A DNA stretch of 64,000 nucleotides, taken from contig NC_043004.1 in assembly GCF_006345805.1 (NCBI RefSeq), positions 51,026,001-51,090,000 of the forward strand, in the 5' to 3' direction. The DNA is from Octopus sinensis (Eukaryota). How positions within the stretch are numbered: the first letter of the stretch is position 1; each line of letters begins with the position of its first letter. The notes beneath the pieces were generated by a model. The model saw only the letters and a list, made by a program, of their open reading frames with translations, did not search any database and was not told the DNA's origin. The translations under genes were made by a program, and so were the position numbers. Below, piece by piece: positions 2,030 to 64,000 of this stretch.

Positions 2030-2056
2030 ATCATATATAATATATATATATATATA

Positions 2057-2282
2057 GGGAGAGTTTACGAAAAAAAAAAACAAAAGACGAAAACAGGTGG
2101 TGTACAAAACAAACAGATGTATTAGTATAACGCTCAGGAATAGAAAAAAGTCTTTTACGTTTCGAGCCTACGCTCTTCTACAGAAAGGGACACAGAAAAA
2201 ACAAGGAGAGAAACAAGGATAGAAAAATGTGTGTAGTGGCTAACGATCTATCATGGCTTCTGACTCGGACAGACGCCATGAT
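2057..2282 (-). mobile_element. PLE-type terminal repeat fragment (family Z4) with minimal HHR-like motif at 2151-2188
   Basis: Minus strand reads ttt-CTGTAGA-a-gagc-gtag-gctc-GAAAC-GTA-aaaga; homologues at 37272, 38442 and 42428. Confidence 0.65.
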
Positions 2283-2300
2283 ATATATATATATATATAT

Positions 2301-2700
2301 GGCCCAGTGGTTATAGAATTGCGGTTTCGATTCCCAGACCGGGCGTTGTGAGTGTTTATTGAGCAAAATCACCTAAAGCTCCACGAGGCTCCGGCAGGGG
2401 GGGGCAAACACTGTTATACTCTTTCACCTCAACTTTCTCTCACTCTTTCTTCCTGCTTCTGTTGTACCTGTATTTCAAAGGGCCAATCTTGTCACATTCT
2501 GTGTCACGCTGAATCTCCCCATGAACTATGTTAAAGATACACGTGTTTGTGGAGTGCTCAACCTGAATCTTCCCGAGAACTACGATAAGGGTACACATGT
2601 CTGTGGAGTGCTCAACCACTTATACGTTAACTTCACGAGCAGGCTGTTCCGTTGATTGGATCAGCTGGAACTCTCGCCGTCGTAACCGACGGAGTGCCGT
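2301..2700 (+). mobile_element. tRNA-derived SINE (family C) with internal ~60-bp duplication
   Basis: ggcccagtgg A box, ggtttcgattccc B box; homologous to 18039-18385 (-). Confidence 0.8.
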
Positions 2701-2737
2701 AGTAACGTATATATGTGTGTGTGTGTGTGTGTGTGAA

Positions 2738-3200
2738 TTAAAATTGTTTGATTTGGCACCATGCAACTTAATAAAGTTTCGTAGTGTTCTTACAGAAACC
2801 TGGCGCGACGGGCTCAGTCCACACACCAACGAGTTGATGCCATCAGCTTTCACCCAAATGCCAAACCCTCTCATACTCATACGTAGTAGATACATACGCA
2901 TAGGCATCATCTGCGCTTACAAAACATCTGGTATACACATACCCATCGCCGGCCATGTCTGATGGCCCGCAAGTCCCTTCAAAGACCGCCCAGACAGCAA
3001 AATACCACCAGTTACGCATCTGTTGTCGCTGTAATATCGATCTCACTTCTAACCCCATGTGACTAGCCTTGAGCAATAGCAGCCCAGTTTGCAGGAACCA
3101 TCTTAAACTTCCTTCATCCCTCAGTTCTGTTAAAGAGCTACGTTTCTGTAGGAAGCCCACGAAACACTAAGTCGCATGGAACTAAATCAAATTATTTTAA
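2738..3200. repeat. ~460-bp element with ~60-bp imperfect terminal inverted repeats
   Basis: ttaaaattgtttgatttggcaccatgcaactta...cagaaac versus gtttctgtagg...gtcgcatggaactaaatcaaattattttaa. Confidence 0.55.
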
Positions 3201-3519
3201 ATAGTAATATATGTAACTCTTACTAAATGTGTCGAATGCTTCTTTCGTTCTTTTGTCCACTCACGCGTATATATATATAGAGCTGAAGTGAAGACAGCAT
3301 GTCCTTTATCTATCTCCTTACCTTACTGGAGATTTAGATAAAATTATACTAATGTGTCTATCTGCTTTAATTTAATTAAATTCTATGTCTTTATGCAGCT
3401 GAGGATTGCTCTGCATTTAAATTGATGTGATGGTTGCATTGTTCAATTAAATGGAGTTGCTTGAAACGATCGCACTGCATTACCTTTGGATATCCTTGTT
3501 GCTTATTTTGATTATATAT

Positions 3520-4141
3520 ATATTCCCGCCGAAACTAATGCCACGTGGACATAATACTCTGGATGGGAAGTGATACCACCCTTCCTGCGCATGCATGAAA
3601 ATTTCCGCGCCAGTAGGCCGTGTTAGTACCTGGCATGGTGTACAGATGTGTGGTGCATGCTCCGCTGGGTTTTCGTTTTCAGGCAAGATGACCGAAAGCA
3701 ATTTCCTAGATTGTTACACAACAGTCTTCATGACTATTTGTCGAACCTTCTGAATCAGTACCTCGTTTCGGCTTGAGGCTGACCTGTCTGAGAGTACCTC
3801 GCTCTTCGCTGAGCTGCGGCCATGTCTGAAGCAGCTGTATCCAATCCTTGATCTATGTTCTGCCCATGGCATCATCAAAGGCCTGCTGAATCTCCTGGAT
3901 TGTTGAGCTTGAGTATTACTAAGCTTTTGGCAAAATTTCATGCAACGTCTCTGATCGATGTGTTCGGTGAAAACGAAAATGTGACGAGCGATATATCTCT
4001 GTACTGTAGGCGTAATAGACAGCGCGAAAATTTTCACGCTTGCGCAGGAAGGGTTGCGGCACCTCTCACTTGAAGGATTTTGCCTATGGCATTAATCTTG
4101 GTGAGAAAAAATAAAATCGGATAACTTTTGAACGTACTTCA
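3520..4141 (-). mobile_element. Internally deleted mariner remnant
   Basis: Minus-strand HTH fragment TEHIDQRRCMKFCQKL...SDRSASSRNEVLIQKVR; inverted repeats 3578-3610 and 4022-4056; mariner-like TIR ending at TA 4142. Confidence 0.7.
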
Positions 4142-4289
4142 TACATACATAGCTGGAGGAGATGTCTTCCTGGAGTTATAAATATCAGTAGCACTGTCCT
4201 GGTTAGGACGCCACACTTAGTTCACAAATATATGTTACGGTTTCGTACTGCTACTGTTTATATATCTCTCAGAGATTTAATATAACAGT

Positions 4290-4367
<78 letters not shown>

Positions 4368-4371
4368 TATA

Positions 4372-5618
4372 CAGGGGTTGGACAAAATAATGGAAACACC
4401 TTAGAATTTCGAACAAATTTATTTTAATATGGGATAAAACCGCCTTTGGCAGTAATTACAGCTTGAATTCTACAAATTATGGACTCGTACAAAGTTTTAA
4501 TTGCTTCCAAAGGAATTTTTGTCCATTCTGCAGCTAAAACAGTCTCCAGTTCTTGTAGGATACAAGGAGGATATCGACCCCTTACTTGCTTTTCTAAAAT
4601 GCACCATAAATGTTCAATAATATTGAGATCTGGGGACTGTGGTGGCCAGATAAGATGTTCAACTTCACTAGAATGTTCTTCGTGCCATTCAGTAACAACT
4701 TTAGCTGTGTGAATTGGTCCATTATCAACCTGAAAGATTGTACTTCCCTCCGAAAACAGTTCCGCAATCATAGAATGTCTTGACTATTAATTCTGCCATG
4801 AAGGGAAACGATTGGGCCGGCGGATTTCCAAGATATAGCCCCCCCCCCGATCATCATGGATCCTCTTCCATGTTTAACAGTTGGAACAAGGCAGTCTGGG
4901 TCAAATGCTTCTTTCGGCTGTCTCCACACGTATACTCGGCTGGTGGTCAGAAATAGGGTAAAGGATGACTCGTCTGAGAAAATAACATTCTTCCACTGCT
5001 CTAGGGACCAATTCTGTAGTTTTTTACTGCACTCTAAACGCTTTGCAACGTCTGTTTTTGAAAGTAGTGGTTTTCTGATTGCAGCCCTTCCGTGAAATTC
5101 GACTTTGTGCAGCTCCCAGCGAACAGATTTTGTGGAAACTGTGTTCTCGGGGTGGTCATTAAGCTCTGCAGTAATTTTGGGAGCTGTATTTTGTGATCCT
5201 TTCTAACAATTCGCGTAAAAGTCCGACGGTCCCTATCTGAAAGTTTTGGTTTTCTTCCAGAATTTTGTTTCGATGAGGAGGTTTTTCCCTCTTTCTCAAA
5301 GGCTGTCATTACGTTCGAGACAGTACTTCTTGATACACGAAACATTTCGGCTGTTTTCGTTACGCTAGCGCGTGCCATACGTGCATCAACAATTTGACCT
5401 CTTTGAAAGTTCGATAGATCAGTCATTTGATGAATTTTAATTACCTTTTTATGATGATATCTGAAAAGAAACAGCAATTTTACCAAAAGATATTAAGCAA
5501 CACTAATAATAAATAAATAAAAAAACATTAAAATAAACAAGCTTTTGACGCTTTTATAGATATTTCAAAATTATGATGCTATGATGCTAGATGTTTCCAT
5601 TATTTTGTCCAACCTCTG
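4372..5618 (-). mobile_element. Tc1 transposon, full length, frameshifted transposase pseudogene
   Basis: TIRs caggggttggacaaaataatggaaaca with TA flanks; ORF pieces SGRKPKLS, FQVDNGPIHTAK, WPPQSPDLNIIEHLW. Confidence 0.95.
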
Positions 5619-7394: not shown

Positions 7395-8150
7395 TATACA
7401 CACATATGTACATACATACATACATATGTATATAGCTATGCATATATGGGTACAGGACGTCACAAAACGTAAACAACATGAAATACGAAAATAACGTTGG
7501 CTACGCAATGAACGAGAGAAAGAAATGGAAAAAAAGAAAGTAACATAAAGAACGACCCTTCATCAGTTTCGGCTGTCCTTCTACTCCTTATTTCGAGCAT
7601 CCCTATTCCTCCTTTACTCTCTCTCTCTCTCTCTCTCTCTCGTTGCTCACACTTGACCGTCGTCCATCTTTCCTTTCCTCACATGATCATCTTTCTGTTC
7701 TTTCAGTCTGTTGCGCAGTCCTGACACATTCCTACCTGTCTCCTCTCCTATATTTTCTCTTATCAAAGAATCTTCTTCCAGCGTTTGCTAGCTTACCTCA
7801 TCTGAGCCTAAAGGCCCTCTTTGTTTTTATATTCGTTTGGTTCGGTTTGTGTATGTCCTGTTTTTGTTACCAGCTTTGACCTTCCGCAAATCCCAAATTT
7901 TATTTTGGTTCGTAGGAGCAACTGCCTTCACAGTCTTATCTTGTCGTTCATTGCTCGAAATAGGGAGTAGAAGGGCAGCCGACAACTGATGAAGGGTCAT
8001 TTTTTATGTTACTTGTCTGTTTTCCATTTGTCTCTCGTTCTTTGCGTACCCAACTTTATTTTCGTATTTCATGCTGTTTACGTTTTGTGACGTCCTGTAT
8101 CCATATATGCATACCTATATACATACATATGTATGTATGTACAAATGTGT
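7395..8150. mobile_element. PLE-type element with ~200-bp inverted terminal repeats (family R2)
   Basis: ~7395-7600 is the reverse complement of ~7950-8150; the + arm carries the reversed-order HHR at 7922-7997. Confidence 0.7.
7922..7997 (+). ncRNA. Putative reversed-strand-order hammerhead ribozyme (family R2)
   Basis: ctgccttc-acag-tctta-TC|-ttgtcg-ttcatt-gctc-GAAA-taggg-agta-gaagggcag-c-cgacaa-CTGATGA-a-gggt. Stem I ttgtcg/cgacaa is a perfect 6 bp, stem II gggt/gctc, stem III tctta/taggg. Confidence 0.7.
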
Positions 8151-12102: not shown

Positions 12103-12337
12103 TATTGCCGCAAAGGCATTTACTTCAAAATACGCCAGCTAAGATAAGTTAAACTGTCTAAAGTCATAAGATACCCGCTGTTTTTGTCCTGTTATTACTA
12201 TTCTTGTTTTTACCATTATTGTTTTTTGTATTTATATTCGTGTGGCATCGTCCGTTTGTCTGTCCTTGTTTCGTATACATTCGATCCCTTTTCCCAAGAA
12301 ATCTAATGCTCGCAGCTTAGTTTTTCCTTGGGGCTGG

Positions 12338-12413
12338 CCGGATCGGAGCGATATCAGGATTAATCAGCCGAGATTGCTAGGATGATCCGGTTCCTGACTG
12401 AAGATTAGAGGCT
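12338..12413 (+). ncRNA. Putative reversed-strand-order hammerhead (family R1; GAAA>GAGA in this copy)
   Basis: ccggatc-gg-agcga-TA|-tcagga-ttaatc-agcc-GAGA-ttgct-aggat-gatccgg-t-tcctga-CTGAAGA-ttaga-ggct. Stem I tcagga/tcctga covaries with tcaaga/tcttga of the 55487 copy. Confidence 0.65.
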
Positions 12414-12502
12414 TCGAATGACCCGTCCGTTTTTTGTGTCGTCTCTTTGTGTGTTTTGCGTTCTTGTCCCATTTTGTATTTTTATATATAATTTTTATAT
12501 AT

Positions 12503-28172: not shown

Positions 28173-28354
28173 CCCTGATGCAGTACTAGGCAGTGAGTCT
28201 CGTGGCTTTTGATCTTAACTGATTGGAAGTGTTATCATGTACATGTTTCATCTTGATATAAAAGATGGGCCACAGCAAACATGATAGGTATATTAGGCCT
28301 CGTATAGTTGTACTCCAGTGTCACTCTAATGGCATGCGCTGCTCTCTCACCCAA
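28170..28354. repeat. Internally deleted copy of the AAT-flanked repeat at 32700-33232
   Basis: Shared ctgatgcagtact..cttaactgattggaagtgttatc and ccagtgtcact..gctctctcac ends. Confidence 0.7.
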
Positions 28355-28887
28355 TGATAATAATAAAATTCTATGGCAAAGACGATAATGAACTTGAAGA
28401 ACTATTACGTACTGCGAAAGAATTCAGTGATGACATCGGGATGGAATTTGGTCTTGATAAATGTGCCAAGGCCACTTTCCAGAGAGGAAAATTGAAGACC
28501 TCACATTCAGTGGTGTTGGATGTTGACACAGACATAAAAGAACTCGAGCAGGAACAAACTTACAAATACCTCGGAATAAACGAAGGTTCTGGCATTCAAC
28601 ATGCAAGTTTGAAAGGGAAGATCAGGAAGGAATGTCACAGGAGAGTTCGAGCAGTCCTAAAATCCGAATTAAATGCACGTAACAAGGTTTTAGAAATAAA
28701 TTGCTTTGCACTTCCAGTTGTTATTTACAGTTTCAATGAGTTGATATGAAATATTAGCGAAATAAGGAAGAATGACAGGAAAATCCGTAAGCTGCTGACT
28801 TGCAATAAAATGCACCACCCAAAGGCAGATGCAGATCGTTTTTACCTACCCAGATCTCAAGGAGATCGAGGCTTGATAAAATTTGAA

Positions 28888-30605: not shown

Positions 30606-32438
30606 GGGCACTGTCATGCCTTTGGATGTCATTTTCACGTCACACTTTTTCTCGTCCATCTTCGTTTCTTTCCGTATAATTTACGCAAAATCAAAAACGC
30701 GTGTAAATATATCAAATTAAAAAACGCAAATTATTTAGAATGTAAAAATCAAATATATCAAATTAAAAAACGCAAATTATTTAGAATGTAAAAATCAAAT
30801 ATATCAAATTAAAAAACGCAAATTATTTAGAATGTAAAAATCAAATATATCAAATTAAAAAACGCAAATTATTTAGAATGTAAAAATCAAATATATTTAT
30901 TCTTGCATTATTCATTATTGTTTTTAAAAAAGAAATCACACCAAAATCTGCACAAATGAACCCCCATGACCATCACCGCGATTACATACACCAATCAGAA
31001 TGACCACTGACCACCACGTGCGTAATTCAAACTTTGAAATTTATTCAGTTAGAAACTTTCAGTGTGATATCAACACGTGCTAAACAATTTTTAATATGGC
31101 TTTTGCATATCCAAGTTTAAGAGGAATTAGTCACCGCGATATTGCCGTCTCCACTGCTACAACAGCAGATAGCATTAATTGGCTTAAGAGACATGGCCTT
31201 TTGAATACCCAGAAAATATGTACATCGTGTGGAGCTAGCATGAGTGAAGTAGGGAAAAAAAGTATATCTGATGAAGTAATATGGTCGTGTGGAAGGCCTT
31301 GTAGAAAATCCGTGTCAATTAGAAAAGGAACATTTTTAGAAAATAGCAAATTGAAGTGTCAACAAATCATAGATATTTTGTTTTACTGGGCCAAAGAAGA
31401 TTTAGCAAAAGGAATAGGACAGGAATGTCATTTAGCAAATGTAGCCGTGACAGATTGGAGGAATTTTTGCCGCGATGTATGTGCAGAATATTATGTTGCA
31501 CAGAATATTAAGCTGGGAGGACCCAACAGAATCGTAGAGATAGATAAAACCGCGTTTGTTAGGAGAAAATATCATGTTGGCCATCGGGTTAAAACGCAGT
31601 GGGTGTTTGGTGCTTTAGAAAGAGATACCAGAAGATGTATTTTAGTGGCAGTGGAAGATCGGACAGCGGACACTCTTTTACAGATTATACGAGAGCGTAT
31701 ATTGCCTGGTACAACAATAATTTCCGACCTTTGGCGTTCGTATAATACACTCAGTCAACTAGGATACAGACATTTGACCGTGAATCATTCAATAAATTTT
31801 GTTGATCCGGTAACATTTGCCACAACCAACCACATAGAATGTTTATGGAAACACGTAAAGACTCGAAATAGAAGAGAATGTGGAACAGCCAGAAATTTAC
31901 TTCAGACCCATCTCATCGAATTCATGTGGCGCTATGAATTTAAGGACGATATATTCGGGAAGTTGATAGAGCAAATTCGACAGCTATATCCATGTGTTGA
32001 GTATAAGTATCAAGACAGAATGAGTATCGCATTTATTTTTAAACTTAACTTCAAGTTTATATTTTGATAATCTCACCGTTGAAAATGATATTTGAAAATA
32101 ATTTGCGTTTATTAATTTGATATATTTGATTTTTACATTCTAAATAATTTGCGTTTTTTAATTTGATATATTTGATTTTTACATTCTAAATAATTTGCGT
32201 TTTTTAATTTGATATATTTGATTTTTACATTCTAAATAATTTGCGTTTTTTAATTTGATATATTTGATTTTTACATTCTAAATAATTTGCGTTTTTTAAT
32301 TTGATATATTTACACGCGTTTTTGATTTTGCGTAAATTATACGGAAAGAAACGAAGATGGACGAGAAAAAGTGTGACGTCAAAATGACGTCAGATTTTTC
32401 TTCTTTCACTTCTGACATCCAAAGGCATGACAGTGCCC
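30606..32438 (+). mobile_element. Merlin DNA transposon with ~290-bp TIRs containing 46-bp tandem repeats
   Basis: Perfect terminal gggcactgtcatgcctttggatgtca / tgacatccaaaggcatgacagtgccc; 46-bp unit x4 at 30705-30888, inverted at ~32096-32310. Confidence 0.93.
31096..32067 (+). CDS. Merlin/ISXO2-like (IS1595-family) DDE transposase, 323 aa, uninterrupted
   Basis: N-terminal CxxC..C..C zinc ribbon, SIRKGTFLE, VEIDKT, WVFG, IISDLWRSY, HLTVNHS..FVDP, TNHIECLW, HLIEFMWR. Confidence 0.92.
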   Translation: MAFAYPSLRGISHRDIAVSTATTADSINWLKRHGLLNTQKICTSCGASMSEVGKKSISDEVIWSCGRPCRKSVSIRKGTFLENSKLKCQQIIDILFYWAKEDLAKGIGQECHLANVAVTDWRNFCRDVCAEYYVAQNIKLGGPNRIVEIDKTAFVRRKYHVGHRVKTQWVFGALERDTRRCILVAVEDRTADTLLQIIRERILPGTTIISDLWRSYNTLSQLGYRHLTVNHSINFVDPVTFATTNHIECLWKHVKTRNRRECGTARNLLQTHLIEFMWRYEFKDDIFGKLIEQIRQLYPCVEYKYQDRMSIAFIFKLNFKFIF

Positions 32439-52462: not shown

Positions 52463-52600
52463 TAATCAGTCGAAATTGCGAGGATGATCCGGTTCTTGAT
52501 TGAGGATAAAAGGTTTCGAATGACCCGTCCTTGCTTTTTTGTATCGTCTATCTAGTTGTCCGGATGTTTTGCGTTCTTGTCCCATTTTGTATTTTATTTT
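52463..52600 (+). repeat. 5'-truncated family R1 terminal repeat
   Basis: taatcagtcGAAAttgcg..gatccgg-t-tcttga-TTGAGGA; same start point as the 815 copy. Confidence 0.7.
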
Positions 52601-52619
52601 ATATATATATACATACAGC

Positions 52620-54876: not shown

Positions 54877-55476
54877 GGTGGGGAGCGGCGGGTGGGGTAG
54901 AATGACTGCCATTGAAGCTTTTATTAGTTTTTAGACCAAACTTTTGTTTTTCTTGGCTGCAATGATAGTTGTGTGGCATATCCGGGCCCACCTTTCTTCT
55001 CTCTCTTTCTCTTTCCCTCTCTCCTCCCCCCTCTCTCTCTCTCTCTCTCTCTTACATACCGTACTCATGGTCTCTGGCTCCCAGCCTGATTTGATATCTA
55101 TGTCGCTTTCACAGCCTCTCCTGCTTCAGTTATTCTCTACTTCTCTCTCTCTCGCTCTCTCTCTCTCTCTTTCTCTCTTTACAACGCACATGCAAACATG
55201 TGCGCGTGTGGGTACGTGTTTGTGTGAGCGCGCGCGCGTGTGTGCATGTGCTTGTGTGTGTTGTGTGTGTGTGTGTGTGTGTGTTGTGTTTGTGAGCGTA
55301 TATGTGTGTGTGAGCATGTGTATGTGCGTGTGTGTGTTCGTACGTGAGTGTGCGTGTGTGTGTATGCCTGTGAGCGTGTGCGTTGTTTATGTATGCATAC
55401 GTGCTGGCATGTACGTCTGTGTGTATGTATGTATGTATGTATGTATATATATATATATATTATATATATATATATT

Positions 55477-56410
55477 GGCGGGCTGGCCATATCGGAGCAA
55501 TCTCAAGATTAATCAGCCGAAATTGCTAAGATGATCTGGTTCTTGACTGATGACTGAGGGCTTCGAATGTCCGTCCTGTGGTTCTGTGTCGTCTCTGTGG
55601 TGTTTCATGTTCTTGTCCATGTCTGTAATTAATTTTACTGTTTACCTATATAATCGGCGGCTACGTATCCACAATTGTCCTTATACGATAAGTATATTTT
55701 TTTCTCTAGCTTTGATACGACTCTTAATCTGTCTCTTTTTCTCTCTCTCTCTCTCCTCCCTTATTCCACTTCCTTTCTTTCCCTCTCCATCCGTCCCCCC
55801 CCCTTCTACGTTTCTCTATCTCTCTCACCTCCAGCCCCCTCGATCTGTCTCTTTCTTCTCCTCCCTCGTCCACCTTCTCTCCTCTTTTCATCTGTCCCTT
55901 TCTCCGTCTTTTGTTCTCACGTGACAGCTAGCCGCTGTTGAGCGCTCTTTTCGTTTTCAGCAGCCGCAGAAGCAACACGTATTTGTCGTCTCCCCGTGCC
56001 TTTAGCACTTCACAGCCAGCCCCAACTCAAATCGTCCTGTCGAAGACCCTTGTCCTACGTCCTGGTTTTGTTTGTTGTTTATTTTTTATTTTTACCGTTA
56101 TTGTTTTTACGTTTTTGATTCTTATTGGTGTCACGTATTCTGTATTTGTTTGTGTACTTCGATCGTTTTCCGTCCTTTCGTTGTATACATTCGAAGCTTT
56201 TTCCAGGGGATCTAATGCGCTTGGCTTAGATTTCCCTTGGCGGCTGGCCATATCGGAGCAATCTCAAGATTAATCAGCCGAAATTGCTAAGATGATCTGG
56301 TTCGACTGATGACTGAGGGCTTCGAATGTCCCGTCCTGTGGTTCTTGTGTCGTCTCTGGTGGTGTTTCATGTTCTTGTCCATGTCTGTAATTAATTTTAC
56401 TGTTTACCTA
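55477..56410 (+). mobile_element. Non-coding element with ~170-bp direct terminal repeats, each holding a reversed-order HHR (family R1); duplicated at 57007-57938
   Basis: 55477-55650 matches 56238-56410; 761 nt between predicted cleavage sites 55502 and 56263; (TA)n flanks. Confidence 0.8.
55487..55562 (+). ncRNA. Putative reversed-strand-order hammerhead (family R1, intact core)
   Basis: ccatatc-gg-agcaa-TC|-tcaaga-ttaatc-agcc-GAAA-ttgct-aagat-gatctgg-t-tcttga-CTGATGA-ctgag-ggct; further copies at 56248-56321, 57018-57091 and 57774-57850. Confidence 0.7.
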
Positions 56411-56967
56411 TATATATATATATATATAGATATATATATATATATATAATATATATATACTTTATTCAAAAGCAGCAGAAATTCAATAAAACCTGTTACT
56501 CGGAGTTTCAACGTTCCCGTTCGTCGGCAGTTTTGCTAAGTAAAGCATATTACTCTACCCCTGGTATTTGAGTACTCTTTTTTCCACCTTGTTTCACATT
56601 TATGTGTTTACTCCGGTATATATATATATATATAATAACAAAGGGTAAAATTAATTAATTAAGAAGTAATCGTTCAAATGTTTCTAGTACCTTCGGATTG
56701 TTACAGAAAATCCATACTGATGAAGAATATGGTTAGTAAAGTATATATTTTTATATTCTTTATGTAAAAACCTATTCAGAACGCGCGTCTATGGATGATC
56801 GGATATTGATTGATTTTCGTTTGCTTTACTTTACTTTCTGCTATGTGATTAAACTTCAAGTATTTTGGGTTCTCTGGAAGTAGAAGAAATGGCTAAGAGT
56901 TTTGGCTGCTATTTCTGAACTTCGGTGTGTGGTGAGGCAATTCTTTGCTGAACCCTTTTATTAGTAT

Positions 56968-57003
<36 letters not shown>

Positions 57004-58020
57004 ATATGGCGGGCTGGCCATATCGGAGCAATTCAAGATTAATCAGCCGAAATTGCTAAGATGATCTGGTTCTTGACTGAGACTGAGGGCTTCGAATGTC
57101 CGTCCTGTGGTTCTTGTGTCGTCTCTGTGGTGTTTCATGTTCTTGTCCATGTCTGTAATTAATTTTACTGTTTACTATATAATCGGCGGCTACGTATCCA
57201 CAATTGTCCTTATACGTAAGTATATTTTTTTCTAGCTTTGATACGACTCTTAATCTGTCTCTTTTTCTCTCTCTCTCTCTCCTCCTTATTCCACTTCCTT
57301 TCTTTCCCTCTCCATCCGTCCCCCCCCCTTCTACGTTTCTCTATCTCTCTCACCTCCAGCCCCCTCGATCTGTCTCTTTCTTTCCTCCCTCGTCCACCTT
57401 CTCTCCCTTTTCATCTGTCCCTTTCTCCTGTCTTTTGTTCTCACGTGACAGCTAGCCGCTGTTGAGCGCTCTTTTCGTTTTCAGCAGCCGCAGAAGCACA
57501 CGTATTTGTTCGTCTCCCCGTGGCCTTTAGGCACAACTTCACAAGCCAGCCATACTCAAATCGTCTGTCGAAAGACCCTTGTCCTACGTCCTGGTTTGTT
57601 TTGTTGTTATTTTTTATTTTTACCGTTATGTTTTACGTTTTTGTATTCTTATTGGGTCACGTATTCTGTATTTTTGTTTGTGTACTTCGATCGTTTTCCG
57701 TCCTTTCGTTGTATACATTCAAGTTCTTCCAGGGGATCTAATGCGCTTGGCTTAGATTTCCCTGGCGGGCTGGCCATATCGGAGCAATCTCAAGATTAAT
57801 CAGCCGAAATTGCTATAGATGATCTGGTTCTTGACTGATGACTGAGGGCTTCGAATGTCCCGTCCTGTGGTTCTTGTGTCGTCTCTGTGGTGTTTCATGT
57901 TCTTGTCCATGTCTGTAATTAATTTTACTGTTTACCTATATATATATATATATATAGATATATATATATATATATAATATATATATACTTTATTCAAAAG
58001 CAGCAGAAATTCAATAAAAC

Positions 58021-58859: not shown

Positions 58860-59950
58860 AATTAACTGAAGATGCACGTTTACCTCTTTGTCTTTAATCG
58901 ATTTCTGTTTCCACTTCGTCCATCATACTCAATTATGGTTACTAATTCTAAAGACCAGACTATGAAGCTTTTGAGATCGAATCTTTTAGCTCCAGTATTT
59001 GGCCATGATCATTTCTATGTGCACAACGGGCAGCTGATTTCGTTGGCAGAGCATATTTTTCTCTTGGTTCTAAACAATATCTGGCCAGTTGTTTTTAAAA
59101 ATGGTAGCTATTTAAATTCTTTAAGTTCCACCAATATTCTTTTGACCCATTGGTGTCAATATAGTCAAGTTTGTAATTTCCTTTTTCATATTCTGTGTCA
59201 GACTGTTCTGGCTATCACATCAGGCCTCATGGGAAGATGATATCTAGGATACATTCTCTTGCAGTTGGCAATAATGTGGCTGATGTCTTTGTTTTGCACG
59301 GCTTACATTTGTTGTCCGCCAATGTTTTCTGCCTTTTATGTTGCAGATACTTGGTGAAAATCTTTCCTTCTGGACGTAGCCTTCAAAGTGGCATGTCATA
59401 AACTTGCTAGCACTTTATACCAAGCTTTTGGTATGGTCTCTTTTCACTATAGTTTGTGTTTTTCGTGCCAAGTACTCGTGCACAACATTCTTAGTTAACT
59501 GGTCCATTATTTTTTATTTTGTTGTTCTGATAAATAAAACTGACCAACGTACCTCGAGATCTGCACCAGCTCTTATTTCATGCCTCTTCTCGAGTTCATT
59601 CGCCATCCTAATGATATTGTTATGCTTGCAACGCTGGACGCGATAGTCGCTGGTCTCTTTCCTCTGCTACAGATGTTGCTCTGATGTTTCAATACATGCT
59701 TCACATGATATCAATACGGATTTAAGACTGTGGCCACCATCCTGGCATTGTAAGTATAATCTGACTACATTTCCGTTGAAGTTTCCTGCAACACAGATCA
59801 GCTGGCGAATCCGTGCGTCTGTCGATTGGACCTCTTGAAGCAACCAGTTTAGAAGGCCAAAAGTGAACGTAACGATTGGCACTGCAAAGCTGTTATGGGT
59901 GATATGCTTGTTGTAAGGCGAGAGTTTGTGCCACTATATTTTTTCTCTCA
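58860..59950 (-). pseudogene. Decayed RLE LINE (R4/Dong-like) fragment
   Basis: FAVPIVTFTFGLLNW..DARIRQL..RLYLQCQDGG, a CCHC-like region and a PD-type endonuclease remnant. Confidence 0.75.
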
Positions 59951-60437
59951 TTCCTTCTCTTCTTACTGATGGGTTCATACATATGTATGAGTGTGTGTGT
60001 GTGTGGTGTGTGTGTGTGTGTGTGTGTGTTCTCTTGTGTTCTTAGTTATTTGAGATCTTCCTCTAATATTTCTTCTGGATCTTTACATTCTGAATTCAAA
60101 TCTCGCCGAGATCAACATTGACTTTCATCCTTCTGGGGTCGATAAATACCAGCCAAGTAGCGGAGCGAGTGGAAGGGATTAACCTCTTTCTTCATATTCC
60201 AAGCCTTATACCTATATTTAAAACATGAGCTAGCAGAATCCTTAGTGCGTCGGATAAAATGCTTAGAGACATTTCTTACGGTACTTTAAGTTCTGAGCTG
60301 AAATTCTACCGAGGTCGACTTTACTTTTTATCCTTTCGGGATCGATAAAATAAAGGACTAGCGAAGCATGGGGGTTGATGGAATCGAGTTATCCCTGCCC
60401 TGAAAACTGTTGGCTTGTGCCTATAGTGGAAGGGACC

Positions 60438-61315
60438 ATCATCATCATCATCATCATCACCATCATCATCATCATCCCCATCACCATCACCATCATCATC
60501 ATCATCGTCATCGTCATCGTCATTATCATCGTCATCGTCATCATCATCGTCATCGTCATCATCATCGTCATCGTCGTCATCGTCATCGTCAACATCATCA
60601 TCGTCGTCATCGTCATCGTCGTCATCGTCATCGTCGTCATCGTAATCGTCATCATCGTCATCATCGTCATCATCGTCATCGTCATCATCGTCAGTCATCA
60701 TCGTCATCGTCATCATCGTCATCGTCATCATCGTCTTCGTCATCATCGTCATCATCATCATGGTCATCATCATCATGGTCATCATCATCATGGTCATCAT
60801 CATCATCATCATCACCATCACCATCACCATCACCATCACAATCACCATCATTATCATCATCATCATCATCATCATCGCCATCACCATCGCCATCGCCAGC
60901 ACCATCACCATCACCATCGTCATCGTCATCGTCATCGCCATCGCCATCACCATCATCATCACCATCATCATCATCGCCATCGCCATCGCCATCTCCATCA
61001 CCATCACCATCACCATCCTCTTCGTCATCGTCATCGCCATCGCTATCGCCATCGCCATCATCATCATCGTCATCGTCATCGTCATCGTCGTCATCATCAT
61101 CATCATCATCATCATCACCATCACCATCATCACCATCACCATCACCGTCACCACCACCATCACCTCACCATCATCATCACCATCATCATCATCATCATCA
61201 TCATCATCACCATCGCCATCGCCATCGCCATCATAATCATCATCATCATCATCATCATCATCGTCATCGTCTTCGCCATCGCCATCACATCACCGTCACC
61301 ATCATCATCATCATC

Positions 61316-61346
<31 letters not shown>

Positions 61347-61622
61347 CCATCACCATCACCATCATCTTCATCATCACCATCATCATCATCATCATAATCA
61401 TCATCATCGCCGTCGCCATCGCCACGCCATCACATCACCATCACCATCATCTCATCATCATCATCATCATCATCATCACATCACCATCACCGTCACCATC
61501 ACCTCACCATCATCACCTCACCATCATCATCATCATCATCATCATCGCCATCGTCATCGCCATCGTCATCGCATCGCCATCGCCATCACCACCCATCACC
61601 ATCACCTCACCATCATCATCAC

Positions 61623-61656
<34 letters not shown>

Positions 61657-61872
61657 TATCATCATCATCATCGCCATCACCATCACCATCACCATCATCT
61701 TCATCATCATCATCATCATCATCATCACATCACCATCACCGTCACCATCACCTCACCATCATCATCACCATCATCATCATCATCATCATCATCGCCATCG
61801 TCATCGCCATCGTCATCGCCATCGCCATCGCCATCACCATCACCATCACCATCACCTCACCATCATCATCAC

Positions 61873-61915
<43 letters not shown>

Positions 61916-62342
61916 GCCATCACCATCGCCATCGCCAGCACCATCACCATCACCATCGTCATCGTCATCGTCATCGCCATCGCCATCACCATCATCATCA
62001 CCATCATCATCATCGCCATCGCCATCGCCATCTCCATCACCATCACCATCACCATCCTCTTCGTCATCGTCATCGCCATCGCTATCGCCATCGCCATCAT
62101 CATCATCATCGTCATCGTCATCGTCATCGTCGTCATCATCATCATCATCATCATCATCACCATCACCATCATCACCATCACCATCACCGTCACCACCACC
62201 ATCACCTCACCATCATCATCACCATCATCATCATCATCATCATCATCATCACCATCGCCATCGCCATCGCCATCATAATCATCATCATCATCATCATCAT
62301 CATCGTCATCGTCTTCGCCATCGCCATCACCATCACCGTCAC

Positions 62343-62392
<50 letters not shown>

Positions 62393-62559
62393 CCATCACC
62401 ATCACCATCATCTTCATCATCACCATCATCATCATCATCATCATCATCATCGCCGTCGCCATCGCCATCACCATCACCATCACCATCATCTTCATCATCA
62501 TCATCATCATCATCATCACATCACCATCACCGTCACCATCACCTCACCATCATCATCAC

Positions 62560-62602
<43 letters not shown>

Positions 62603-62987
62603 GCCATCGCCATCGCCGTCGCCATCGCCATCATCATCATCATCATCATCGCCATCGTCATCGCCATCGCCATCGCCATCACCATCACCGTCACCATCAC
62701 CTCACCATCATCATCACCATCATCATCATCATCATCATCATCATCGCCATCGCCATCGTCATCGCCATCGCCATCACCATCACCATCGTCATCGCCATCG
62801 TCATCGCCATCGCCATCGCCATCAACATCACCATCACCATCATCATCACCATCATCATCATCATCATCGTCATCGCCATCGCCATCGCCCTCGCCATCAT
62901 TATCATCATCATCATCGTCGTCATCGTCATCGCCATGTCCATCACCAACACCATCACCATCACCATCGCCATCACCATCACTATCAC

Positions 62988-63022
<35 letters not shown>

Positions 63023-63081
63023 CTATCACCATCATCATCATCATCATCATCATCATTACCATCATCATCACCATCCCCATC

Positions 63082-63113
<32 letters not shown>

Positions 63114-63304
63114 CATCATCATCACCCTCACCATCACCCACACCATCATCATCCTCATCATCGCCATCGCCATCATCATCATCGCCATCGTCATCGTCAT
63201 CGTCGTCGCCGTCGCCGTCACCGTCACCGTCATCGCCATCGCCATCATCATCATCATCATCATCATCACCACCATCATCATCATCATCATCATCATCATC
63301 GTCG

Positions 63305-63350
<46 letters not shown>

Positions 63351-63358: not shown

Positions 63359-64000
63359 TTATTACATATTTGACTTTTGCTTTATATTTGTACAAGTTGG
63401 CTCCAAGTCTCACCCAGAGACCTCAAGAGACAACAGGTTGGAAGTTCACGTTGTTGTTATACCTTGTGTGCCATATATTTGGTTGTTTTTCTGTTTTACT
63501 AGTGGATCTCTAAAAAAAAATGTTTGTTTTAAACCTTGAGATTACATAGAAAGTACTTTGCGTAGGGTATGAGTAGTTCCCATGAGCACTACCTTTTGAA
63601 TTTCTGCCATTTTTGGGTTTCCTGTTAGGTAGCAATCAGCCCCTTTTGCTATCATTCCCAGGGCACCTATGACAACAGGTATTGTTTTAGTCTTCAGGTT
63701 CCACAGTTTGCTGATTTCTATTTCAAGATCTTTATATTTGCTCAGTTTTTGGTAGGTCTTGACAGATACGTTTATATCGATTGGGACAGTCATATCAATG
63801 AGGAGGCATGTTCTTTGTTTGAAGTCTTTCAATATGGTGTCTGGCCTATTTGCATCTATCTTTCTGTCAGTTTGAATGGTGAAGTTCCAGAGGAGTGAGA
63901 TGTGGTCATTTTCAAGCACTGGGGGTGGTTTGTGTTCCCACCAGTTTTTTTCATGGGGAAAATCCAGGTTTTTGCAGATTACCCAGTGAATATATTGTGC
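63359..64000 (-). pseudogene. 3' end of R4/Dong-like LINE (restriction-like endonuclease)
   Basis: LLWNFTIQTDRKIDANRPDTILKD..CLLIDMTVP..KLSKYKDLEIEI..IPVVIGALG; (AAT)n tail adjoining the CAT array. Confidence 0.9.

Follow-up and report, generated by a model that had tools for sequence, protein, structure and literature searches.

Do two direct repeats in the genome of Octopus sinensis, each with the blocks of a hammerhead ribozyme, mark a retrozyme, and is its RNA cut and copied as a circle? The repeats lie in a 64,000-nt stretch of DNA (the window, in which positions are given). They span 55477-55652 and 56238-56414 and are 97% identical across about 175 nt, and both contain UH, then GAAA, then CUGAUGA. 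The AUC cut triplets end at 55502 and 56263, which delimits a segment of 761 nt (55503-56263). The interior is 72% pyrimidine (88% within one 191-nt tract), has a GC content of 45%, and holds no credible open reading frame: 10 ATG-initiated frames of at least 30 amino acids overlap 55400-56500, but none exceeds 190 amino acids and several are read-throughs of microsatellites. A (TA)n tract lies on either flank. These features (Table 1) bear out the initial annotation of the locus, which had described two motif-bearing direct repeats of ~170 bp, a non-coding, pyrimidine-rich interior of ~590 bp, and a location within (TA)n.

Table 1. Positions of the element's parts and of its second copy in the window.
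Feature	Position	Strand	Support
(TA)n target tract, 5' side	55446-55476	.	sequence
Repeat 1: 5'-truncated start (26 nt ahead of the cut site), motif 1, tail, internal TATATA at 55647-55652	55477-55652	+	
5' strand of the P4 fold-back helix and non-bulged strand of the predicted kink-turn	55487-55496	+	two-sided changes at 4 of 7 P4 pairs among sister families
Block S: stem III strand, AUC (predicted cut after 55502), stem I strand UCAAGA	55497-55508	+	5'-end pile-up
Block G after a 6-nt linker: stem II strand AGCC, GAAA (55519-55522), stem III strand	55509-55526	+	
3-nt bulge, tandem GA, 3' strand of P4 (predicted kink-turn arm toward stem I)	55527-55540	+	
Block C: stem I strand UCUUGA, CUGAUGA (55547-55553), 5-nt insert (55554-55558), stem II strand GGCU	55541-55562	+	
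Predicted monomer between the two cuts (761 nt in the assembly; family unit ~779 nt)	55503-56263	+	
Pyrimidine-rich non-coding interior of the unit	55653-56237	+	
Repeat 2: motif 2 (predicted cut after 56263; 2 nt short in stem I), tail to the fixed 3' end	56238-56408	+	
(TA)n target tract, 3' side	56409-56459	.	sequence
Second element copy within the 1.5-kb duplication	57007-57936	+	indel-dominated differences

The copy at the locus differs from the unit at locus L007 by 5 substitutions and 17 indel events, with 19 nt missing. The whole 1.5 kb (the element and a 550-nt spacer) is repeated directly downstream, with 3 substitutions and 42 indel events between the two. Because the duplicate has so few substitutions and so many indels, we read it as a false duplication or a poor consensus, and the 1.5-kb duplication is likely to be an assembly artifact. 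Three of the four motifs in the element and its duplicate hold differing indels of 1-2 nt. In particular, motif 2 as assembled is missing 2 nt of stem I, which the duplicate retains (the duplex is at +0.6 kcal/mol, versus -4.8). Unless this gap is an error, one of the two cuts at the locus would fail, whether the motifs act in cis or swap strands. The monomer of ~761 nt in the initial annotation is exact for the spacing as assembled, but this spacing is likely a product of assembly indels: the family unit is about 779 nt, and the cut-to-cut spacing is 766-785 nt in copies outside the locus.

We searched the 2.72-Gb genome for relatives. Repeat 1 yielded 1,253 candidates, and the best 40 of these 1,253 are 98-100% identical to it. 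We fetched 60 loci, which merge to 44 insertions. (These are the top-scoring matches, which biases them toward young full-length copies, and two pairs among the 44 are possibly assembly duplicates.) Within the fetched stretches, and with a few degenerate motifs undercounted, 13 insertions have one motif, 15 have two, 13 have three, and 3 have four; arrays reach four or more motifs. In 40 of the 44 insertions, the 3' end is at unit position 150-154, about 146 nt beyond the cut site, and the other 4 extend beyond the fetched DNA. The 3' ends stop at a TATATA that, inside arrays, runs on into the interior. The 5' ends are scattered over unit positions 1-753 and mostly abut (TA)n. Exact matching, which gives lower bounds, found at least 805 3' ends, at least 333 internal junctions, and at least 752 motifs that span the cut. 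A 68-nt core is matched exactly by 75 of 87 family motifs. Judged from these copies, the family is young and non-coding, with at least 805 insertions.

The locus is a 5'-truncated insertion, 1.2 units long, of this tandem family. Since the 5' ends are scattered, the 3' end is fixed, and the units are in tandem, the two repeats are pseudo-LTRs of a truncated array. So the initial view of LTR-like repeats that flank an interior does not hold: the repeats are where the array overlaps itself. Partial tandem structure, a fixed internal 3' end, variable 5' truncation, and a microsatellite target are all present, and tandem arrays with pseudo-LTRs are a pattern reported for Penelope-like elements (PMC8557442). 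We also considered a coding parent and rejected it, as all 30 of the loci that were fetched with their interior fall in tandem units.

Sister families B, C, D, and F carry the same motif. Of these, we examined B, C, and D and found all three to be non-coding; the unit measures about 856-875 nt in C and 673 nt in D. Widely spaced copies of family D might have been 4-kb elements, but on examination we rejected this. The window contains 5'-truncated copies of C (815-942, + strand; 858 candidates in the genome), B (12221-12485, + strand; 3,552 candidates), and F (52463-52601, + strand; 1,713 candidates). At another locus (L261), family D arrays form a cluster, and between the arrays, long runs alternate a short 3'-end piece with (TA)n and (TG)n.

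We then examined the ribozyme. The blocks are in the order cut site, GAAA, CUGAUGA, with the core nucleotides conserved. This is type SGC, the non-circularly permuted order of the hammerhead (Eckert et al. 2023, PMC10085705). In that survey, constructs with a single SGC motif cleaved at 0.007-0.19 per minute, and no SGC motif was found in the genomes of known organisms. In our structure model, stem I has 6 pairs, stem II has 4, and stem III has 5, plus an arm. The arm has a 3-nt bulge and tandem GA pairs, and it ends 1 nt ahead of the stem I strand. We predict that the arm is a kink-turn, as it fits the kink-turn consensus. This conserved fold-back arm is predicted to deliver to each motif its own CUGAUGA strand.

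We aligned six sequences, which represent five subfamilies. Pairing holds in 96% of the cells, and both partners change in 6 of the 25 pairs, of which 2 belong to stem I and 4 to the fold-back helix P4. None of 500 shuffles scored as high, a control that overstates significance because the six sequences are related; controls with slid pairings were 29-50% paired. These compensatory changes in the sister families support two helices, stem I and P4. Stem II is invariant across the six sequences and hence has no covariation support there. Stem III has one-sided changes and, in family D, a paired insertion. A helix of 3 pairs that closes the free ends of stems I and II is 88% paired, with no covariation.

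The core block is interrupted: in all five subfamilies, 5 nt of variable sequence lie between CUGAnGA and stem II. Known hammerheads tolerate 1-2 nt between a core block and the stems (PMC10085705), so this insert is longer than the published limit. Core position 7 is U, A, or G, depending on the subfamily. We rejected a split core in which the second GA would serve as G8/A9. In family F the second GA is missing, whereas C3 and the first GA are retained, so we prefer an ordinary core plus an insert. The insert is complementary to the linker between stems I and II in some families; in the family of this locus the pairing is unstable (+1.6 kcal/mol).

Standard methods did not recover this fold. 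Nested folding, which excludes pseudoknots, gave a different structure that pairs the core, with stability no greater than that of shuffles (z of -0.1 to -0.9). An Rfam scan of the window had no hammerhead among the 150 of 152 matches listed. A conventional type I reading was also rejected: the window has 12 matches in the normal order, all of them outside the element.

The same layout (SGC order, kink-turn, and insert) occurs at the 3' end of the published Naiad_Ovul consensus (by our own reading of the supplement of PMC8557442) and in its genomic copies, with a differing sequence and a 4-nt insert. Two other SGC families in this genome have inserts of 1 nt. One is unrelated in sequence and lies in the window at 7520-7620 (- strand) and 7900-8105 (+ strand), with 2,733 candidates that are 86-91% identical; it would be a good natural control for the 5-nt insert. 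The other is on the minus strand of locus L112 (at ~2790-2870 in the coordinates of that strand), where it is inserted downstream of a Penelope-like element.

Is the RNA cut at the predicted bond? If the reverse transcriptase sometimes copies cut RNA, then insertions should start at the first base past the cut. We counted 5' ends that adjoin a TA tract, on the minus strand and with one count per locus. There are 56 insertion 5' ends from -22 to +5, and 11 of these lie upstream of the cut. The ~45 at +1 to +5 amount to about 9 per nt, versus 0.5 per nt upstream, or a density that is ~18-fold higher just past the predicted cut than ahead of it. From +6 to +25 there are 53 more (2.65 per nt). Among the matches listed, there are at least 28 distinct loci, with 22 that start at +1 to +5, including 9 at +1. 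Across all 21 loci of family D, 13 start at +1 to +5 (9 at +1) and 8 start upstream; none of the 21 starts at -2, despite identical microhomology. The 5' ends pile up exactly at the cut position that the initial annotation had predicted, which suggests, indirectly, cleavage at that bond. We consider it likely that the RNA is cut in vivo after C55502.

A transcription start or a stall at the +1 base would look alike, but the peak coincides with the bond that is predicted from the structure. It could be that the motif no longer cuts and is kept as a folded signal for the reverse transcriptase, with the pile-up due to such a start or stall. This would fit with the insert, which violates the published block rule (PMC10085705), with the shoulder of 5' ends that runs on over +6 to +25, and with the fact that RNA ends at the site were not observed. 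Nevertheless, the peak is at the hammerhead-predicted nucleotide in two subfamilies that are only ~75% alike, and the catalytic positions are all kept although position 7, the insert, and the stems vary. We find it improbable that the motif has ceased to cut.

If it does cut, does each motif act alone? The initial annotation suggested that neighboring motifs on one transcript could each lend the other the CUGAUGA strand, so that cleavage would take place in a swapped dimer. Known dimeric hammerheads compensate for a weak stem III, whereas stem III here has its 5 pairs and a covarying arm that reaches to within 1 nt of the stem I strand. Hammerheads associated with Penelope elements or found in axolotl are known to cleave as dimers (PMC7229834; reportedly also Lunse, 2017), the near identity of the motifs here makes swapped pairing feasible, and the insert could weaken the cis fold. 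But the partner motif is about 780 nt away, and in the Naiad consensus a 4-kb element contains this design a single time. Also, a swap is not needed, because SGC ribozymes cleaved as single motifs (PMC10085705) and the predicted fold-back arm would supply each motif's own strand. Overall, cleavage is probably in cis, and we give little credence to the swapped dimer.

We propose that each motif likely folds and cuts alone at AUC, that ligation then probably closes the freed monomer into a circle, and that a borrowed Penelope-type reverse transcriptase/endonuclease likely copies the circle into (TA)n. The enzyme would nick (TA)n, prime at the internal TATATA, and copy toward the 5' end. (A Penelope-like reverse transcriptase starts inside its own RNA; PMC11167929.) If the template were a cut linear monomer, the enzyme would reach its end at the cut, and a solo fragment would result. 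If it were a circle, copying would continue until the enzyme fell off, which here would be after ~1.2 turns, with the cut site crossed twice. We moderately favor this explanation as a whole, from cis cleavage by the SGC motif through circularization to Penelope-type copying into (TA)n. For the circle as the main template, our preference is slight.

The template deserves closer argument. The 752 exact motifs that run through the cut mean that most cDNAs were copied past it (at this locus, twice), so the template must have been uncut, ligated, or jumped. About 750 motifs were copied across the cut, versus roughly 90 stops, and uncut tandem transcripts would explain this equally well. In contigs from three presumed RNA runs, the element is present and the sequence continues across the cut site, as would be expected from a circle, a precursor, or DNA alike; no run that is certain to be RNA represents the element well. 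Units within an array are more similar, at 0.0020 substitutions per site (25 pairs), than units from different arrays, at 0.0077 (1,571 pairs), with the pyrimidine tract masked. Similarly, markers are in all of the covering units in 28 of 49 cases, versus 4.0 expected, and 12 variants are private to a single array yet present in all of its units. The other 21 of the 49 cases are discordant; some of these are alignment artifacts in an A/T run, and others look real (as at L005). This sharing of unit haplotypes within arrays fits a circular template, without proving one. If linear arrays are copied with 5' truncation, then the number of units cannot rise, so a step through a single unit is needed time and again. 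The simplest form of this step is a circle, with template jumping or DNA duplication as alternatives.

It could instead be that the ribozyme cuts but the templates are uncut tandem transcripts, or linear monomers that the reverse transcriptase jumps between, with circles rare or irrelevant and arrays that expand again by DNA-level duplication or template jumping. Besides the many cDNAs that cross the cut site, this is favored by a precedent: a Penelope-like element from the anole did not require hammerhead cleavage, and its main substrate in vitro was unprocessed RNA (PMC11167929). Also, some arrays mix haplotypes, and the unit has no special circular structure (folded as a circle, it is no more stable than shuffles, with z of -0.24 and 41% paired). 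On the other hand, animal retrozymes do produce circles (PMC7229834), and arrays with three or four motifs hold private variants in all of their units. A linear template still needs the recurring single-unit step, which template jumping or unequal crossing-over could provide. We regard linear templates as unlikely, if a serious contender, and continue to prefer the circle.

What supplies the enzyme? We are confident that mobilization is of the Penelope type. The insertions share (TA)n targeting, pseudo-LTR partial tandems, and 5' truncation with Naiad elements and with non-autonomous Penelope-like derivatives, MRC1 among them (Craig et al. 2021, PMC8557442), and the 3' end of Naiad_Ovul has the same ribozyme layout. 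In contrast to Naiad, the retrozyme family has no open reading frame. By blastn, the unit had no meaningful match to 42 GIY-YIG loci or to 47 Naiad loci, where the one strong match was to a sister non-coding family, so the likeness to Naiad is in RNA architecture and not in sequence. An autonomous partner with a related 3' end was not found among these 42 and 47 loci. Nor was there any sign, in the fetched loci or in these comparisons, that the interior is the UTR of an ordinary autonomous element.

Naiad as a living helper was rejected for the copies that we scored, although a distant intact Naiad may exist. Two 20-mers taken from the published consensus of an octopus Naiad have exact matches at 59 and 5 places in the genome. 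The 145 reverse transcriptase matches (from the best 150 of 816 candidates) are all broken, with a longest open frame of 320 amino acids. This agrees with the published remark that cephalopod Naiads are remnants (PMC8557442). A young element that, by our own reading, is of the Neptune type has intact 781-amino-acid open reading frames (2032-4374 at L121) with a reverse transcriptase, a CX4CXXC linker, and, at the C-terminus, a GIY-YIG domain. Its end is a T-rich run followed by TAC and TATATA in (TA)n, which resembles the ends of the retrozyme and its sister families; its hammerhead is type I-like and not SGC. From these sequences, it is the best candidate for the helper, and we give it an even chance. 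At L121:2032-5455 and at L122-L124, copies of this element have a hammerhead whose core is a U3/A8 variant, and tandem repeats in the element's 3' UTR contain ATTGG and TGACGTC motifs that are reminiscent of promoter boxes. Elsewhere, head-to-head inverted 5' arms beside an insertion, a hallmark of Penelope-like elements, are seen in family F (L269 and L273) and family E (G000:C2:153458925-153461422).

Another candidate helper, an R4/Dong-like LINE, was rejected: it ends in (TAA)n, and we found no hammerhead in the 3' UTRs of 15 loci. Its C-terminal domain has 69,575 candidates in the genome. Fragments of this LINE are in the window at 63545-64000 (- strand), 28330-28746 (+ strand), and probably 59000-59900 (- strand). 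A 2.9-kb microsatellite of the (CAT)n type (60437-63350) is at the 3' end of a copy of this LINE. The window also contains a likely DNA transposon (30625-32391), in which inverted repeats of 272 nt (99% identical) surround an open frame of 327 amino acids (31084-32064).

How does the family compare to known retrozymes? Like the non-LTR retrozymes of metazoans (PMC7229834; bioRxiv 10.64898/2026.07.22.740005), it consists of non-coding tandem units with one hammerhead core each, dispersed as dimers to multimers, with about 45% GC and with intact Penelope-like elements in the genome. The ribozyme is different, with SGC order instead of type I. The unit of ~779 nt is also longer than those of coral, mussel, and axolotl (about 220-350 nt). 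More broadly, the typical metazoan retrozyme monomer is about 300 bp with low GC (PMC7229834), so units of 766-785 nt are over twice the typical size, while the GC content of the interior fits. Those retrozymes are expressed as monomers in linear and in circular form, whereas the octopus family is known from genomic copies and contigs. Because of the SGC order, the type I descriptors of published surveys would be expected to miss it.

With the SGC ribozymes (HRIMA-1 and variants; PMC10085705), the motif shares the order of site, GAAA, and CUGAnGA, three mutually crossing stems, a short linker between stems I and II, and an intact core. Those ribozymes are from environmental sequence, whereas this one is in an animal retroelement, with a 5-nt insert after A9, a 6-nt linker, and the predicted kink-turn arm on stem III. 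(The main text of PMC10085705 does not mention "kink.") The single copy at this locus also resembles plant LTR retrozymes, with two ribozyme-bearing repeats about 700-800 nt apart. However, the plant elements have type III hammerheads in true LTRs and 4-bp target duplications (PMC7229834; bioRxiv 10.64898/2026.07.22.740005), while here the 5' ends are scattered over the unit and an insertion may have four or more motifs. The initial label of a retrozyme-like element is therefore apt for a non-autonomous, ribozyme-bearing retroelement but not for an LTR-like form.

Our literature searches found no printed report of an SGC retrozyme or of a cephalopod hammerhead; subscription papers and the supplements of bioRxiv 10.64898/2026.07.22.740005 and PMC10085705 were outside their scope. 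As far as its sequences indicate, the family behaves like a metazoan non-LTR retrozyme with an SGC-order hammerhead and an interrupted core block, which would be a new combination. A young and large family with a fixed start of copying and a readable cut footprint offers a way to test if Penelope-type enzymes use circles as the template for animal retrozymes, and if a hammerhead can accommodate five additional bases beside its core. More tentatively, and with some doubt, we suggest that there is a class of retrozymes that is invisible to type I searches. Its members would be animal circular RNAs of 670-870 nt, made by an SGC hammerhead with an opened core and a kink-turn brace, inherited from a now-dead Naiad and copied by an unrelated enzyme of the Neptune type. 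If this is true, then surveys of retrozymes that are based on type I miss whole families, and a ribozyme topology that was known only from environmental RNA has a place in an active mobile element of an animal.
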